Below are positions 8,192-13,926 of a DNA stretch of 32,000 nt, piece after piece (the first letter of the stretch is position 1; every line of letters begins with the position of its first letter). The translations under genes were made by a program, and so were the position numbers. A model generated the notes under the pieces. That model had not been told where the DNA came from. It saw only the letters and a program-made list of their open reading frames with translations, and did not search any database. This DNA comes from Planctomicrobium piriforme (GTDB lineage Bacteria; Planctomycetota; Planctomycetia; Planctomycetales; Planctomycetaceae). The stretch is from positions 258,659 to 290,658 of the forward strand of contig NZ_FOQD01000003.1 of the NCBI RefSeq assembly GCF_900113665.1. The letters run 5' to 3'.

Positions 8192-8683
8192 ATGTTGACT
8201 GCATTGCTGCGCGTTGTGAGTGCCTGCACCGTTCTTTCTACGGCCTGCCTGATGGCTCATGCCGATGACGCAACGGCGAAGTGCGATCCGGCCGACTTCG
8301 ACGGCACCTACAAGATTGTCTCCGGCGAAATGGACGGGAAAGCAATCCCGCCAGAACGGCTGCACCATGTGAAAGCGGTCTTCACAGCCGGTTCCATCGT
8401 CACGTTCGACAAGGACGAGAATCAGGTCTATGCCGCGACGTTCACCCTCGGGCCCGCGAAAAACGGCTGCCACATCAACATGACCAGTCAGAAGCCGGCT
8501 AAGGAGGGAAGCTCTGCCTCGGGACTCATTAAAAAAGACGGCGACACCGTCTCGCTGATCTACGCCCTGCCGTCAGGCGAATTGCCGACGAGCTTCAAAA
8601 CCCACGCGAAACAACACCTGTTCATCATGAAAAAAGTGACCGACGCGATCCCTCAGAACGATCAGGAACTGAAGAAGCCGTGA
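8192..8683 (+). CDS. Secreted lipocalin-like protein, TIGR03067-type planctomycete domain
   Basis: Signal peptide MLTALLRVVSACTVLSTACLMAHA. The domain pattern FDGTYKIVSGEMDGKAIPPE ... GDTVSLIYALPSGELPTSFKT matches my recollection of the TIGR03067 family. The longer ORF-track form from 7997 would read through the opgH terminator. Confidence 0.75.
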   Translation: MLTALLRVVSACTVLSTACLMAHADDATAKCDPADFDGTYKIVSGEMDGKAIPPERLHHVKAVFTAGSIVTFDKDENQVYAATFTLGPAKNGCHINMTSQKPAKEGSSASGLIKKDGDTVSLIYALPSGELPTSFKTHAKQHLFIMKKVTDAIPQNDQELKKP

Positions 8684-9329
8684 GCGTTCCTGGGAGCGAT
8701 ATCCATTTCTCGGTCGATCCGAAATACCCAAAAGTAGCTGCTACGGCTGTCTGCCAGACGGCGAACATCAACACGACGGGCAATTGTCCGCCTGCAAGAT
8801 CGCGAAGGACAATTGCGAACATCAGATAGCTCATTGTGCTGATGGCCCCGACCAACGACACGACGACCACGCATAACCTCTTTCGGCGACACGGAACCAG
8901 GGTAACGACCGCTATTGCCAGCAGGAATCCGCCAAAAGCTCCGCTGATGCCAAGCCAAAGGTCCCCGCGCATCGATGTTGTAAAAGGCATCAACAGCGCT
9001 GGAAACCACATCGTGAATCCAACGCTGAGAACATACGAGAGTGCTGAACTCAAAACGAGAAGTACCATATTCCTGTTGGACAAGGGCAGGAGAGTGCGTC
9101 CAACTGCGTATGAGAGAGCGATCCCCAAAGTGATTCCTGGTAGGCCCAGTACGAGGGGATAAATGACGGAGCAAGAAAACGCGGTGATCCCACCGGAGAC
9201 CAGGCCGGCTTTTGCAAATTCAATGACAATTCTGGCCCGCTCAGGCGGCTCTCTCTTGAGGTCACGCTGCTCCAGTATCGCCTGGGCAAATTCGACCACT
9301 TCAGGAGAAGCGTCGTTCATCTCAATCAT
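8625..9329 (-). CDS. Hypothetical multi-pass membrane protein, last gene of the terminase operon
   Basis: A soluble N-terminus of about 40 aa precedes 5-6 hydrophobic segments (ITAFSCSVIYPLVLGLPGITLGIAL, MVLLVLSSALSYVLSVGFTMWF, LWLGISGAFGGFLLAIAVVTLV, LCVVVVSLVGAISTMSYLMFAIVL, LPVVLMFAVWQTAVAATFGYF). Same strand as TerL, 102 nt downstream. Its 3' end overlaps the convergent gene by 59 nt. Confidence 0.6.
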   Translation of the reverse strand: MIEMNDASPEVVEFAQAILEQRDLKREPPERARIVIEFAKAGLVSGGITAFSCSVIYPLVLGLPGITLGIALSYAVGRTLLPLSNRNMVLLVLSSALSYVLSVGFTMWFPALLMPFTTSMRGDLWLGISGAFGGFLLAIAVVTLVPCRRKRLCVVVVSLVGAISTMSYLMFAIVLRDLAGGQLPVVLMFAVWQTAVAATFGYFGSTEKWISLPGTLTASSVPDRSEGSRRSLFS

Positions 9330-9431
9330 CTTGTTTATTGGATCGCAGTCTCTCGCTGCGAGAACCGTTTTTCATCGCCAGCTTTCACTGCTTAACAGAG
9401 TATTGCACTGGATATTATCACTGTTTCACCG

Positions 9432-10928
9432 TCACCACCCGAATCCTCCCCCATTCTCCGGCGGCGTCACCAGTAAAAAATCTCCTGTCGACTCCTCGTT
9501 GAGCGTCAGACAGGCGACTCCCAGGGTGAAGGCGCGATCGTCGTGGTGCTGGCCGTCGCTGACGTGATCGATCCGCAGTTTCCCGGCGGAGGATTGCCGC
9601 AGGATCAGCGATGCCAGTTCCGTTTCCAGATCGTCGCGGTGGACGCCGGGAACGCTGCCGCAGCCGGGATACCATTGCACGCGCTGGTGCAGAATGAGCT
9701 GCCGCAGGGCGACCGCCAGCCGATGGTTCCCTTCGCCTGCGGAGAACCGGAAACGCTGCACCGGATATTTGTTTTCCAGCCGCTGGATCGTGCCGATTAA
9801 CTGGTATTCGTCCACGACGAAGCGCACCTGTTCAAAACGCGAGGCGATGTCTTCGATCCAGTCTTCCACCCAGGCAACGCGCGTGGGCGTGTTCTGATCC
9901 GGCTTCACGACGTCCATGCGGTCGACGACGATCAATTCCCCTTCGCGGTGACAGACGCAGCCGACGGTGAAGTCGTGCTTTTCGGCGTAGTCGATGGCGG
10001 CCACGTAGGCGCGGCCCGGCTGGCCTTCGAGTTGATACCGGCGGCGCTCGTTCCGGCAGGCTTCGACTTCCGTCAGAGTGAGAAAGTTGCCTTCCGCATG
10101 CTGCCAGCGATTGAGCCAGAGCCGTTCATAGACGGGTTGCGGCAGCAGAGCCCGTTGTTCGGCGAGCCAATCCTCTGTGATCCACGGCGCCTGCGGGCCG
10201 TCGAGCGAAGAGAAGTACCACCGAGAATCGTGGCGGGCGTGTTCGCGGATCTCCCATTGCCAGCCGCGGCCGACGCCCGCGTTGGTCAGAATCGTCAGCA
10301 CGCAGCGCGGCTTCTTCGCGGCGGAGGACAGCAGCGAGTACCACATCTCCGGCCGCGGCCAATGGCTGACTTCGTCGCAGATGACAAAGTCCGGGAGCGC
10401 GCCATAGGAGCTTTTCACATCGGACGAAATCACGTCGAGACGGCTGCCGGTCTGCTTGTTCTTCACCAGGTGTTCGAGAAACTGCAGCGGTTCCAGCAGC
10501 GGCTGATTGACGCTGGCCAGCCGTCGCAGGGAGTCGAGCAGAAACAACCCCTGATCGCGATCGGCCGCCGCCGCCAGTCCATTCACAGGTTGCCGCGCGG
10601 CGAGCAGAATCCAGGCGATCTGCACGGCCATGTCGGAGGTTTTCGAATGCCCGCGAGGGCGTTCGATATAGGCTCGTCGCAGACATTCCTGATCAGGACG
10701 AGTCGTGCGGCCCGCCAGTTCGAGCCAGGCCGTATCGAGCGCCGCCAGATCCTGCCGCTGCCAGGGCTGCAGTACATCTCTCAGCCGTTGTCGGGCATCA
10801 CCCGGCAGCCAGAGCTGGCGGCGAAACAACTCAGGACTTCGTCTCGCATCGCGATTGAGAATCTCCCGGTGCAGGCTGAGGCAATAATTCTGCCGCCAGC
10901 TTCTGGAATTGGGCAAGGAGTTCATCAT
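9432..10928 (-). CDS. Phage terminase large subunit-like protein (Terminase_1 / COG4626 type)
   Basis: LQPWQRQDL entry motif, deviant Walker A ERPRGHSKTS, Walker B FVICDEVSHW, and nuclease-domain acidic motifs AAIDYAEKHDFTV and HHDDRAFTLGVA. The ATG at 10928 overlaps TerS by 98 nt. An alternative TTG at 10829 starts 1 nt after the TerS stop. Confidence 0.85.
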   Translation of the reverse strand: MMNSLPNSRSWRQNYCLSLHREILNRDARRSPELFRRQLWLPGDARQRLRDVLQPWQRQDLAALDTAWLELAGRTTRPDQECLRRAYIERPRGHSKTSDMAVQIAWILLAARQPVNGLAAAADRDQGLFLLDSLRRLASVNQPLLEPLQFLEHLVKNKQTGSRLDVISSDVKSSYGALPDFVICDEVSHWPRPEMWYSLLSSAAKKPRCVLTILTNAGVGRGWQWEIREHARHDSRWYFSSLDGPQAPWITEDWLAEQRALLPQPVYERLWLNRWQHAEGNFLTLTEVEACRNERRRYQLEGQPGRAYVAAIDYAEKHDFTVGCVCHREGELIVVDRMDVVKPDQNTPTRVAWVEDWIEDIASRFEQVRFVVDEYQLIGTIQRLENKYPVQRFRFSAGEGNHRLAVALRQLILHQRVQWYPGCGSVPGVHRDDLETELASLILRQSSAGKLRIDHVSDGQHHDDRAFTLGVACLTLNEESTGDFLLVTPPENGGGFGW

Positions 10929-11328
10929 CCGTGAGTTCCTCAGGCGTCAGCGCGTCGGCGTCGGCAGTTTCAAACCAGTCCGGCGGGGGTCGGTTTTTCA
11001 AATAGAACGTCTGGGCTGAAACGTTCCCTTTCATCGCCGCGCAGTACAGCGCGGCGGCGACATTCTGGCTCAGCAGTTCGCGAACGCGGTCGACCAGATT
11101 GCGGAAGCGTTCATCCGTCTCCATCACCGCGGCGATTGCCGCCAGCGAGATGCCGACTTTCTTGCAGGCCTCGGCAGGCGGCAGTCCGCACGCCAAGAAT
11201 TGCAGATACTCTTCCTGCTGAGCCGCTGTCAGTTGTAAGCCTGTCGCGTCGTCCGCCAGCAGCTTCGCAACCTTATGCTTTGAGAGCAGAGCGTCACCCG
11301 TCTTACCTTCCACCTGACGCGGGTCCAT
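10831..11328 (-). CDS. Phage terminase small subunit-like HTH protein
   Basis: HTH segment LPPAEACKKVGISLAAIAAV and the TerS-typical FYLKNRPPPDW near the C-terminus. The start is placed at ATG 11328 (MDPRQ). The upstream extension to 11430/11622 has lower third-position GC (hand count 20/34) than the overlapping GNAT frame (26/31). Confidence 0.7.
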   Translation of the reverse strand: MDPRQVEGKTGDALLSKHKVAKLLADDATGLQLTAAQQEEYLQFLACGLPPAEACKKVGISLAAIAAVMETDERFRNLVDRVRELLSQNVAAALYCAAMKGNVSAQTFYLKNRPPPDWFETADADALTPEELTDDELLAQFQKLAAELLPQPAPGDSQSRCETKS

Positions 11329-11923
11329 GTCTTGCGGCGTGCGCCCGGTTGTCGAAGATGTAGTAGACCGGGTTCGCGAAGCGGCTTTTGTCGTACGTTT
11401 CGCGGGTGAGGAGGGCTGCTTTTTGGCCATGTTTCTGACGACGGTAGAGCAGGGAATGGGATGCTCGCGAGCGTTCGACCGTGCGTGAGACGCCGACGCG
11501 GCGGAAGCCGGCCCGTTCGAAGACGGGGTTAACGTGTCCCATCTGGGTGAGGGTTTCGATCCAGGGATACCCGGTGAGTTCGCAGCAGCGGCGGATGAAT
11601 CGATACCCGATGCCGGCCCCACGATAGGTGGGATGGAGCACCACCCGCGACAGTGTTAGCAACTGACGGTTCAATGTGCGCAGTAATGTGCGATCCCATT
11701 TTCCGCCACGGCCAAAGTAACGGTTCCGCTGCGCTAGCGATTTGGGCGGGGCAATGAACAGGCAAATGCCAACCGGTTCATCTCCCTGCCAGAGGAGAAA
11801 CAGCTGCCGAATCAGCCCGATGCGGTGGCTGCGATAATGCCACCGAGCGAAGTACGTCCAGTCGGACTTGGTCGCGGAGGAGATCCAGAACTCGTCGGCG
11901 AGCCGCAGCGTTTTTTTTTGAGA
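11303..11923 (-). CDS. GNAT acetyltransferase domain, reachable only by a -1 shift from the upstream ATPase frame
   Basis: The frame is open from 11923 to the TAA at 11303. There is no ATG/GTG/TTG start until TTG at 11674. It encodes WHYRSHRIGLIRQLFLLWQGDEPVGICLF ... RVVLHPTYRGAGIGYRFI ... VFERAGFRRVG, which includes a GNAT acetyl-CoA motif A. Third-position GC is 37/42 in the first 42 codons after the A9 tract. Confidence 0.8.
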   Translation of the reverse strand, partial: SQKKTLRLADEFWISSATKSDWTYFARWHYRSHRIGLIRQLFLLWQGDEPVGICLFIAPPKSLAQRNRYFGRGGKWDRTLLRTLNRQLLTLSRVVLHPTYRGAGIGYRFIRRCCELTGYPWIETLTQMGHVNPVFERAGFRRVGVSRTVERSRASHSLLYRRQKHGQKAALLTRETYDKSRFANPVYYIFDNRAHAARHGPASGGR

Positions 11924-12615
11924 TCACCGTCAGAGGTCGTCACTTCGATCTCGCCATCCAGCCGACAGCGGATATGAACATCAGCAGCGAGGTCATCCAC
12001 GATATCTTCGTGTGTCGTCACCAGCAGAAAGCCGATTCCAGTCCGGTTGGCGAGCCGGGAGAGATTCGACGCAATCACTCTGGCGAGTCGGCGATCAAGC
12101 GTCGCGGTGAATTCATCCGCCACAATCCAGTCGGCCTGTTGCGACACAGCGAGTGCCAGCAGAAAACGGTAACGCTGTCCATCTGAAAGCTCTGAGGGAG
12201 TTCGCAACATTAGCTGCGCTTCACCCAGTCCGCACGCGGCGAGCAAGGCCAGACCGTCGGCCACCGCCCCCGGCAACAGGTCGACCAGGCAACGGTCGTC
12301 CAGCGTCAAATCGGCAAGCGAAATAACGCGAGCACCCGCTGCCTTCAACTGCTCCGCCGCTGACCTCAACAAAGAAGACTTGCCAGACCCGCTTTCACCG
12401 GTGAACAACACGACGCTGCCAGGCTGCACGCTGAACTGCAAATCACGGGCGATGATATGTTCCCCCTGTTCGAAATCGATGCCGAACTGATCCATCACGA
12501 CCGACGCACGCGTTGAGTTCACTCTCGGGCGGAAGTGATGAGAGACGGACAAGCTGAGAGTTTGGGCGGGCGATGGCATGAATGGGAGGGGGCTCGACGG
12601 GGGGGAATTTGTCAT
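11812..12615 (-). CDS. ABC-type ATPase (zero-frame product; a fusion to GNAT is likely)
   Basis: Walker A GESGSGKSSLL, signature-like LSDGQRYR, Walker B WIVADEFTATLD, H-loop VTTHE. After KKK (the A9 tract) the zero-frame tail RCGSPTSSGSPPRPSPTGRTSLGG is low-complexity, with third-position GC of only 16/32. Confidence 0.85.
   Translation of the reverse strand: MTNSPPSSPLPFMPSPAQTLSLSVSHHFRPRVNSTRASVVMDQFGIDFEQGEHIIARDLQFSVQPGSVVLFTGESGSGKSSLLRSAAEQLKAAGARVISLADLTLDDRCLVDLLPGAVADGLALLAACGLGEAQLMLRTPSELSDGQRYRFLLALAVSQQADWIVADEFTATLDRRLARVIASNLSRLANRTGIGFLLVTTHEDIVDDLAADVHIRCRLDGEIEVTTSDGDLKKKRCGSPTSSGSPPRPSPTGRTSLGGIIAATASG
11911..11919 (-). other. A9 homopolymer (T9 on the plus strand) at the ATPase/GNAT junction; candidate -1 slip site
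   Basis: The minus strand reads ctc aaa aaa aaa cgc. Re-reading the last A gives acg ctg cgg..., which is the GNAT frame. A_AAA_AAA fits the X_XXY_YYZ slippery pattern, and A9 runs are known transcriptional slippage sites. Confidence 0.7.
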
Positions 12616-12695
12616 TTGTCATTTGTCATTTGTCATTTGTCATTTGTCATTGGCTATTGGCTATTGGCTATTGGCTGACTGCTGATAGCTGACCG
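12608..12695. repeat. Compound heptanucleotide tandem array spanning the ATPase start codon
   Basis: Plus strand: (TTTGTCA)x6 at 12608-12649, (TTGGCTA)x3 at 12650-12670, then GCTGACT/GCTGATA/GCTGACC at 12674-12694, abutting the ParB-like stop at 12696. Minus strand: (TAGCCAA)3(TGACAAA)6, with the ATPase ATG (12615) formed by the last unit. A C7 run (12599-12605) follows in codons 4-6. Confidence 0.95.
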
Positions 12696-13280
12696 CTACG
12701 ATGCAGCCTGATTGCGGATGTGGAGGCGGAGGTCGGGGTAGCGCGTCAAGAGGGAATCGAGTTCTTGCTGTACCTCGGGCCAGACATCGGGGGGGACTTC
12801 GAGGGTCACCTGCAGGAGTCCGTTGGTCTCGTCTGCGTTCGCTGCATCCTCTTCCTCGTTCTGATCAACAGGAGCGAGCAGCAGGTCGTGCAGTTGTTGG
12901 GCATCGAAGCCTGTCAGCGTCGCGTCGAACTCCGGAAGTTCCTGCAGTTCTGCCACCAGATCAATCAGGCGGTCGGGATCCCAATCGCTGCCCACTTCTG
13001 AATTGTTCAACGTGATGTTGAGCGCCTGTTCCCGCTCCAGCGGCAGGTCGACCACCACGCAGTCCACCTCCGTCTCCCCGTGATGTTTGAGGATTGCCAG
13101 CCGCTGGTGACCTGAAACGACATGGCCGGTTCGCTCGTTCCAGACAATTGGCTGCACCAGTTGAAATTCCGCCAGCGACCGTTCCAGTTTCTTCCAGGCG
13201 GCATCGCCCGGCTTCAGGGAAATCCGCGGGTTATACGGCGCGGGATTCAGAGACGTGACGGGCAATGTTTTCAGCAGCAT
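12696..13280 (-). CDS. ParB-like nuclease (ParB/Srx N-terminal) domain protein
   Basis: LNPAPYNPR, IVWNERTGHVVSGHQRLAIL, VDCVVVDLPLEREQALNITLN and the WD...L pattern, as seen in phage ParB-like domains that are often fused to DNA methylases. No methylase domain is present here; the C-terminal half is acidic. Confidence 0.8.
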   Translation of the reverse strand: MLLKTLPVTSLNPAPYNPRISLKPGDAAWKKLERSLAEFQLVQPIVWNERTGHVVSGHQRLAILKHHGETEVDCVVVDLPLEREQALNITLNNSEVGSDWDPDRLIDLVAELQELPEFDATLTGFDAQQLHDLLLAPVDQNEEEDAANADETNGLLQVTLEVPPDVWPEVQQELDSLLTRYPDLRLHIRNQAAS

Positions 13281-13315
13281 GCAGATGTCCGGTTGAGTCA
13301 GGAGGCAGTGAACAT

Positions 13316-13765
13316 TTACGGCGTTTCAAGCTGTGAGCTTTCATCGGAGAACAGCAAGGATTCAGGTTGGTCAGACACGGTGACTGCCGGGTCGTTCCAG
13401 CTCAGTTCTTCATCCAGATCGAGAAACTCAGGCGAGGCCTGAAATTCGGCTCGCAGCTCCCCTTTGATCCGGGCCAGGCAACGCGTGACGTGGCCTTTGG
13501 GATGCCCGAACACGGCGCCGATCCGGTCGAGCGGCCAGCCTGCGTTTTCCCGTAAGGCGAGCATCGCGAGATATTTCCATTTGCGCATATCTTCGCCGGC
13601 GAAATGGTCATGAATGATCTGCCAGAACTGATCCGCCCCGGAACGGGGGAGAACGATTTTGACGCCATTGGGTCGCGATACGGACATCAACTCTCCTTCG
13701 AGGGTGAAGTGCTGCGGCGACAGGTGCTTCAACCAGTTCCGCAACTGTTGCGCAGCAGGCGACAA
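13316..13765 (-). CDS. Small DNA-binding protein with a sigma-70 region-4-like HTH
   Basis: LALRENAGWPLDRIGAVFGHPKGHVTRCLARIKGELR resembles region 4.2. The track start at 13765 is a TTG; the alternative ATG is at 13687. A 6-bp inverted repeat (ccggag-aa-ctccgg, 13770-13783) sits just upstream of the TTG. Confidence 0.6.
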   Translation of the reverse strand: MSPAAQQLRNWLKHLSPQHFTLEGELMSVSRPNGVKIVLPRSGADQFWQIIHDHFAGEDMRKWKYLAMLALRENAGWPLDRIGAVFGHPKGHVTRCLARIKGELRAEFQASPEFLDLDEELSWNDPAVTVSDQPESLLFSDESSQLETP

Positions 13766-13926
13766 ACAGCCGGAGAACTCCGGCTGGCATCGCTGCGCTG
13801 AGATGGTTGATCGGAACAGGCGGTTCTTCCCAGTTCCGATCTGGGATCAGGAAGGCGCAGCCTGACTCTGGTAAACGAGCGCTGGGAAGAGGAGTTGCCA
13901 GGATTTTTGTCACTGCAGATCCGAAC

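Follow-up and report, generated by a model that had tools for sequence, protein, structure and literature searches.

ATPase and acetyltransferase frames around a run of nine adenines

We analysed a 32,000-nucleotide stretch of the Planctomicrobium piriforme genome (contig NZ_FOQD01000003.1, positions 258,659 to 290,658), referred to here as the window, in which an ABC-type ATPase gene and the coding sequence for a GNAT-like acetyltransferase domain lie in different reading frames of the minus strand and meet at a run of nine adenines (A9). The ATPase open reading frame (ORF) of 267 amino acids (aa) carries the Walker A motif GESGSGKS, the signature LSDGQ, the Walker B motif WIVADEF (IVADEF) and the H-loop TTHE. 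It then reads the run, which is A9 in the mRNA sense and T9 on the plus strand, as ctc AAA AAA AAA cgc, the run beginning at codon position 1 and encoding KKK. The zero frame continues for a further 32 codons of low complexity (RCGSPTSSGSPPRPSPTGRTSLGGIIAATASG, including the peptide TSLGGIIAATASG) before reaching a stop, and this out-of-frame tail has guanine or cytosine at the third codon position (GC3) in 16/32 codons; GC3 of the ATPase part is 0.66. Counted from the last A of the run the -1 frame is open for 202 codons up to the stop at 11303-11305, with a GC3 of 37/42 over its first 42 codons and 0.72 overall. A TGA directly before the run closes this frame, whose earliest ATG, GTG or TTG is a TTG lying 79 codons past the last A and approximately 83 past the opening of the frame. 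A -1 shift would join the two frames into a fusion of 437 aa in which ...DGDLKKK is followed directly by TLRLADEFW..., and the zero-frame context of A9 contains the X_XXY_YYZ heptamer A_AAA_AAA. The run is the sole homopolymer of at least seven bases in the window, which has a GC content of 58.8%. This arrangement had been described in an initial annotation of the stretch, whose numbers for the ATPase frame, the run, the tail and the -1 frame we reproduced throughout and whose product lengths of 267 and about 437 aa we recomputed identically.

The NCBI annotation of P. piriforme recognises the ATPase half only, as a 227-aa protein that is 100% identical to the ATPase ORF of the window and begins at Met41 (12495), dropping the N-terminal stretch. 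This start is probably placed too far downstream because all homologues conserve residues 20-45 of the 267-aa ORF (LSLSVSHHFRPRVNSTRASVVMDQFG), a predicted beta-strand, and the gene probably begins at M1 (12615) or M13 (12579). The ATG of the longest ATPase ORF sits within the last repeat of a heptamer array that fills the upstream gap (Table 1).

In Pfam the ABC_tran model scored 45.5 bits, above its cut-off of 25, and two GNAT models fell just under theirs (Acetyltransf_7, 20.8 against 27 bits; Acetyltransf_1, 18 against 20.7). In a profile search the GNAT part matched N-acetyltransferases of the Protein Data Bank (PDB) at E = 6e-4, and its R-x-x-G-x-G/A motif is present as RGAGIG. The AlphaFold model of the fusion, with a mean predicted local distance difference test score of 82.9, has a GNAT-like alpha/beta domain joined to an ABC domain by a linker modelled at low confidence (residues 231-240). 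Foldseek placed ABC nucleotide-binding domains of the PDB at the top of its matches (E about 1e-10) and the fold search with the model also aligned TmcA (PDB 2zpa) over 434 columns. Among viral fold models the 'GNAT' protein of Leptospira phage LE4 has the same two-domain layout (template modelling scores 0.62/0.73), and Mom-like and NAT_SF proteins were matched as well.

As a query the deduced fusion retrieved 1327 proteins with E values up to 1e-5, among which we count more than 1300 single-ORF ABC+GNAT homologues colinear with it. Single ORFs measuring about 390-490 aa make up nearly all of the 120 best matches; almost all of these matches are from Planctomycetota, and most cover 92-95% of the query at 45-62% identity. 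Many homologues bear the JGI name 'ABC-type ATPase with predicted acetyltransferase domain', so that the family of fused ABC ATPase-acetyltransferases named in the initial annotation does exist. After the -1 shift the fusion is colinear over 92-95% of its length with more than 100 single-ORF proteins; as encoded its frames are split. The family alignment runs colinearly across the junction, where there is a short basic linker (KKK, KRR or RRR), and GESGSGKS, LSDGQ, ADEF and TTHE are invariant in it. Judged from these homologues the ATPase-GNAT fusion is the norm of the family at the protein level. Domain order and content are those of the COG2401 or 'MK0520' type of fused ATPase-acetyltransferase, a name used by both JGI and a phage record. 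On this likeness the window gene is a candidate member of that family; in most of its close relatives the two domains are in different frames.

Table 1 Features of the ATPase/GNAT locus and its neighbours in the window
Feature	Position	Strand	Basis
ABC-type ATPase, zero-frame ORF, 267 aa	11812..12615	-	ORF, motifs and Pfam
A9 slippery tract encoding KKK; proposed slip site (extra RNA A or ribosomal -1)	11911..11919	-	sequence; same alignment position in orthologues
Basic linker and predicted GNAT-fold domain, -1 frame, 202 codons and stop; acetyl-CoA motif RVVLHPTYRGAGIG, family motif FARWHYRS	11303..11911	-	
Two-frame overlap of short-product tail (zero frame) and start of GNAT arm (-1 frame)	11812..11910	-	
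Near-invariant synonymous stretch GACTGGACGTACTTCGCTCGGTGGCATTA, codons D-W-T-Y-F-A-R-W-H-Y, within the overlap	11835..11863	-	
Upstream ParB_N-like protein, 194 aa; syntenic in most orthologous loci	12696..13280	-	
Downstream small terminase-like (TerS-like) protein, 165 aa; start overlaps GNAT stop by 26 nt	10831..11328	-	
Terminase large subunit (TerL) homologue, 498 aa	9432..10928	-	
Small conserved protein of unknown family, first gene of the cassette	13316..13765	-	
Two perfect heptamer tandem arrays between ParB stop and ATPase coding region	12607..12676	.	

Tract length, reading frame and selection across orthologous loci

Orthologous loci were drawn from species-representative genomes, JGI metagenomes and IMG/VR, and in each we noted which frames the Walker B motif of the ATPase and the motif WHYR[SG] of the GNAT part occupy, together with any A run in between. 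Both motifs were present in 86 loci (Table 2), and removal of contigs with identical flanks left 61 distinct tract-bearing loci, drawn from metagenome-assembled genomes, metagenomes and one complete genome of an isolate. A9 with a need for a -1 shift is retained in 43/61 of these, which answers the comparison of fused against slippery orthologues that the initial annotation had proposed; eight more need -1 with A8, A10 or A6, five have A8 and need +1, and in four an A10 run places both domains in one frame. The 43 loci differ widely in their flanking sequence and span independent MEGAHIT and SPAdes assemblies, many environments and the complete genome of Planctomicrobium sp. SH527. Two of the in-frame A10 loci (L001 and L003) are the nearest full-length relatives and have the longer run at exactly the same position; L111 and L137 are likewise A10 and in frame.

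Table 2 State of the ATPase/GNAT junction in the 86 loci with both motifs
Run at junction	Shift needed	Loci
A9	-1	49/86
A8	-1	7/86
A10	-1	2/86
A6	-1	1/86
No run	-1	2/86
A8	+1	6/86
A10	none, in frame	4/86
A8	none, in frame	1/86
No tract	none, in frame	14/86

The same state is visible among predicted proteins. With the 267-aa ORF as query about 115 of the best 120 matches are ATPase-only ORFs of 227-353 aa, which end in KKK and a tail of approximately 32-36 residues of the type ..PTGR[TI]SLGGI.., and a K-run lies within the last 60 residues in 108/116. They include six cultured strains, namely P. piriforme, Planctomicrobium SH661, SH527 and SH668, Maioricimonas rarisocia and Thalassoglobus polymorphus, and in all six the two frames are out of register. 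In a neighbour-joining tree A9 with a required -1 shift occurs throughout the Planctomycetia part of the family and the in-frame forms, with A10 or no tract, are scattered tips or small clades, with tract-less Phycisphaerae and viral sequences lying outside the Planctomycetia part. Because of this distribution the split state looks old, repeatedly retained and occasionally converted to a fixed fusion.

An exact-protein look-up with the 267-, 255- and 123-aa ORFs, both TerL starts and P0121 returned no second copy of the P. piriforme locus, and its A9 thus comes from one assembly. An identical ParB gene is present in an independent short-read assembly (L004, Logan SRR4234955 contig 365), in a contig that ends approximately 70 nt past the gene. 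This is where the heptamer arrays begin, and the repeats appear to break short-read assemblies.

In the split loci the GNAT part shows a ratio of nonsynonymous to synonymous substitution rates (dN/dS) of about 0.22 and the ATPase part of 0.24; the corresponding values for in-frame relatives are 0.32 and 0.26, all of them rough because dS is saturated. On these estimates the GNAT part of split loci is under purifying selection. No conserved GNAT start codon was found among the 51 split loci, start-type codons where present lying at scattered positions, and in 22/51 there is no ATG, GTG or TTG from the opening of the -1 frame to the conserved DW.YFARWHYRS block. In 16 loci it is the tract itself that closes the -1 frame, its first two A's completing a TAA with the T on their 5' side. 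The separately started GNAT gene that the initial annotation considered as a contrary outcome is thus absent from the tract-bearing clade and is seen in distant phage homologues and in one marine lineage only. In the latter (L101, 1311-1500, and L102) the ATPase and GNAT parts are in different frames with no A run, and the GNAT frame has an ATG (MSPGTDRLISFADELW...) shortly ahead of the conserved block, which looks like a split into two overlapping genes.

The tract itself begins at codon position 1 in 22 loci, at position 3 in 18 and at position 2 in three. Codons aligned to it are 88-100% AAA compared with an expectation of about 50%, AAA and AAG being used about equally elsewhere in these genes, and the full A9 is kept in 43/52 distinct loci needing -1 although seven bases suffice for a ribosomal slip. 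This pattern of phase and codon use indicates that the run is conserved as nucleotides and not as lysine codons. Searches for accompanying RNA structure were negative: the 60 nt following the tract had folding energies no lower than those of shuffled sequence (mean z -0.5, as in the in-frame controls), RNAalifold of 40 loci gave a consensus of -2.9 kcal/mol with 0 covarying pairs, the 45 nt before the tract had a mean z of -0.19, and an Rfam scan returned nothing relevant. The downstream stimulatory structure suggested as a check in the initial annotation was therefore not found by single-sequence folding, RNAalifold or Rfam. Stimulators of this kind, or Shine-Dalgarno-like elements upstream, are usual at -1 ribosomal sites without being required there.

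Proposed programmed slippage and its alternatives

The interpretation we consider best, with a probability of roughly 0.6, is that A9 is a conserved and selected programmed recoding site in a gene family of Planctomycetota, most likely acting through slippage of RNA polymerase, which would give both the 267-aa ATPase and the 437-aa fusion. Standard decoding of A9 would yield the 267-aa ATPase with its short shifted tail, and in some rounds of expression the tract would in effect be read with an additional A, translation then entering the -1 frame to produce a 437-aa ATPase-linker-GNAT protein colinear with the single-ORF homologues. The nascent RNA would realign on the T9 template within RNA polymerase to generate A10 transcripts, and since nine bases equal the length of the RNA:DNA hybrid the RNA could re-pair without mismatch. 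Ribosomal -1 slippage on A_AAA_AAA may add to the output of fusion. We infer the identity of the slipping machine, the ratio of the two products and the importance of that ratio, for example through mixed ABC dimers with one GNAT arm. Bacterial RNA polymerase is known to slip efficiently on nine A or T residues, its RNA:DNA hybrid being 9-10 bp, and a nine-base A/T run is exploited by dnaX of Thermus (PMC5009743). The initial annotation had left slippage at the ribosome and at the polymerase side by side; a programmed shift is borne out by the 43/61 loci and by selection on the GNAT part, and as to the machine we lean towards the polymerase in view of the conservation of the full run as nucleotides, the negative structure searches, the dnaX precedent and the five distinct A8 loci needing +1 at the same site, which are easier to reconcile with a polymerase able to add as well as drop bases than with a ribosomal site restricted to -1. 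Transcriptional slippage adding one A is accordingly the mechanism we regard as most likely on the present comparison.

Several observations weigh against this interpretation. Both products are predicted here from sequence; tract length varies and A8 and A10 alleles exist, so instability at the DNA level is real; slippage rates are known for the E. coli and Thermus polymerases, not for planctomycete ones; A9 holds a -1 heptamer in the zero frame in every codon phase, in the window as in every other A9 locus, so that a ribosomal shift fits too; and a Shine-Dalgarno-like GGAG 4-22 nt upstream of the tract is mildly enriched, at 12/51 loci compared with 6.7% of control windows. The GGAG excess is ambiguous as it could reflect a ribosomal stimulator or the conserved ERR codons that it overlaps.

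The last two points bear on a purely ribosomal -1 shift, in which lysyl-tRNAs in the P and A sites would slip on A_AAA_AAA (A_AAA_AAG at phase-2 loci) of a faithfully transcribed A9 mRNA. Phase-2 loci with a following G read A_AAA_AAG, the heptamer of dnaX and IS3, and phage genes are known in which frameshifting proceeds at low efficiency with no stimulator (PMC5009743). We think such a shift possible but doubt that it is the whole account, given that nine bases are kept where seven would be enough, that neither stem-loop, pseudoknot nor covariation was found downstream and that some A8 loci need +1 at the same place. The window gene shares its slippery heptamer with the -1 sites of E. coli dnaX and of IS3-family OrfA/OrfAB (A_AAA_AAG or A_AAA_AAA), and like the IS3 transposases it has a downstream domain that lacks a start of its own and is fused only after the shift, but it differs from these ribosomal sites in having no detected stem-loop or pseudoknot and in conserving the full A9 instead of seven bases. 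If the mRNA were faithful and the variation lay in the DNA, replication slippage could switch the gene off at A9, leaving the ATPase only, and on at A10, giving the fusion, with assemblies recording the majority state. A mutable mononucleotide run within a coding region and length variants among relatives are features of phase-variable contingency genes, poly-A tracts are known sites of phase variation (PMC3711429), and A8, A9 and A10 alleles are all present among the orthologues. Two soil metagenome contigs that are 99.88% identical over 3261 nt (L105, 584-591, and L108, 1706-1714) have as their sole gap A8 against A9, which reflects either a true polymorphism of length or noise in assembling the run. 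Phase variation is the one serious alternative left, yet quite unlikely: the supposed off state is the stable cross-species consensus, found in 43/61 distinct loci and all six cultured strains against four loci in the on state; tract length is shared by 8/9 near-duplicate contig pairs and differs in one; a GNAT frame that was usually off would be expected to decay and not to remain under the selection described above; and the gene encodes neither a surface nor a restriction-modification protein.

That the GNAT domain is started alone, from a non-canonical codon or by termination-reinitiation, with no fusion being made, has precedent in Escherichia phage Cyrano and Stenotrophomonas phage BUCTxx99, where ABC and GNAT genes are separate and coupled, and in the marine loci with an ATG in the GNAT frame and no tract. 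For the tract-bearing genes we judge it very unlikely, as the first start-type codon of the GNAT frame in the window lies beyond the DW.YFARWHYRS block, a large share of the split loci have none before it and none is conserved in position, and reinitiation at the zero-frame stop 32-36 codons past the junction would miss the conserved N-terminal part of the domain. Least credible is the suggestion that the true tract is A10, miscalled at a homopolymer, or that the gene is a recently frameshifted pseudogene, both of which the initial annotation had kept as alternatives. Homopolymers are error-prone in long-read assemblies, four loci do carry A10 in frame and NCBI annotates the ATPase part alone, but A9 with the -1 frame recurs in dozens of independent assemblies with differing flanks and in approximately 115 protein clusters, and the GNAT frame is unbroken, its GC3 high and its dN/dS low. 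At the level of the family sequencing error and recent pseudogenisation are contradicted by this recurrence across loci and protein calls.

Programmed polymerase slippage at A9 recalls dnaX of Thermus thermophilus (tau/gamma), where a nine-base A/T run of hybrid length needs no flanking structure and one gene gives two proteins, short and long, in a fixed proportion (PMC5009743; PMC3711429). In dnaX it is the unslipped reading that makes the long protein and slippage that shortens it; in the window gene unslipped reading would give the short protein, and the fusion would depend on slippage. The gene families and their biology are unrelated. A second parallel is the G/GT tail assembly chaperone of tailed phages, a conserved frameshift in a morphogenesis-type cluster that yields a short and a C-terminally extended protein apparently without strong stimulators (PMC5009743); the window gene differs in being an ABC ATPase/GNAT gene beside a terminase with a long A run as its slippery site.

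The two-frame overlap and the ParB / ABC-GNAT / terminase module

Within the two-frame overlap and approximately 50 nt past the tract the synonymous sites of the motif D-W-P/T-Y-F-A-R-W-H are near-frozen in split loci, with GCT in 45/49, CGG in 44/48 and CAT in 49/51, compared with 6/12, 8/9 and 8/12 in tract-less in-frame loci (Fisher p = 0.002 for GCT and 0.01 for CAT, without phylogenetic correction). The frozen 29-mer of P. piriforme has no second copy within the window. Zero-frame tails of 32-36 codons ending in the ..PTGR[TI]SLGGI.. type recur in the orthologues, and the frozen stretch could mark dual coding of this short-product tail or a nucleic-acid element. The Ser codon of a conserved K-S-R motif near the GNAT C-terminus likewise varies unusually little among orthologues (uniformity 0.74, expectation 0.23).

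The ABC/GNAT gene belongs to a phage-type cassette with the conserved order small protein, ParB_N-like, ABC/GNAT, TerS-like and TerL. In the window the ATG of the TerS-like gene at 11328 gives an overlap with the end of the GNAT frame spanning 11303-11328, and the cassette (8600-13800 and flanks) stands amid housekeeping genes including dnaE, mdoG, a glycosyltransferase, an AMP-ligase, gltB/gltD and gatB. There are no structural phage genes (portal, capsid or tail) near the cassette and no tRNA genes, which were looked for as prophage boundaries, anywhere in the window; the housekeeping flanks likewise gave no prophage boundary. PADLOC gave only generic ABC and ParB-methyltransferase similarity, and a defence-system assignment was rejected.

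Elsewhere the cassette keeps phage company. In Planctellipticum variicoloris (L168) it is followed by portal and capsid genes. The fused protein of Gordonia phages is gene 2, beside a ParB-like nuclease and a terminase, and in phage Sisko the fused 406-aa gene lies between these two. Phages Cyrano and BUCTxx99 have two ParB-like genes and then their coupled ABC and GNAT ('MK0520') genes, which meet at ATGA or TGAcATG and are followed by a small protein annotated as DNA-binding in Cyrano and as hypothetical in BUCTxx99, with terminase and portal genes a few genes further downstream in BUCTxx99 (phage module loci L169, 2986-4538; L170, 3001-4627; L171, 597-1817). The ABC-GNAT module is widespread in phages and planctomycete chromosomes and takes the form of one fused ORF, two coupled phage genes or two frames joined by A9. 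Since all three forms occur, this suggests that the ATPase alone and the ATPase linked to GNAT are both useful and that their ratio matters.

The gap between the ParB and ATPase genes of the window is filled by the perfect plus-strand arrays (ATTTGTC)x6.4 and (ATTGGCT)x4, and period-7/8 arrays of other unit sequences occupy the same place in L010 (8-mer x13), L016, L021, L087, L110, L122, L152, L153 and L168. They might be putative species-specific binding sites for a protein, e.g. ParB or TerS.

As to what the fusion does, TmcA likewise combines a P-loop ATPase with a GNAT fold, although its ATPase is a helicase and that of the window is of ABC type, and Mom of phage Mu is a GNAT-fold modifier of nucleic acid; both likenesses are at the level of the fold. 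Because of this resemblance nucleic-acid modification by the fusion is plausible from the model. A tentative extension, which we think unlikely as a whole, is that the overlap of approximately 100 nt is dual-coding with a selected ..PTGR[TI]SLGGI.. tail, which would explain the frozen D-W-P-Y-F-A-R-W-H codons of the split loci, that the slippage rate at A9 sets the proportion of mixed plain and GNAT-bearing ABC dimers, and that the ParB / ABC-GNAT / terminase module marks or modifies DNA at packaging with the heptamer arrays as its recognition site.

No prior description of this case of recoding was found in the literature searched on COG2401, ABC-type ATPase fusions and planctomycete transcriptional slippage. 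Only two planctomycete genomes were among those that GeneTack surveyed for frameshifted prokaryotic genes (PMC3711429), and a 2016 review of recoding makes no mention of Planctomycetes (PMC5009743). By its sequence conservation the window gene appears to be a well-supported further example of an already known type, programmed recoding at a poly-A run. Few conserved recoding sites are known in cellular, non-transposon bacterial genes and this one is present in dozens of independent lineages and several cultured planctomycetes. Automatic pipelines call the ATPase half alone and lose the acetyltransferase arm, so that the family is systematically mis-annotated. The gene is a point of entry to the ParB / ABC-GNAT / terminase module, which is uncharacterised and whose three forms amount to a natural experiment on the ratio of ATPase to ATPase-GNAT.

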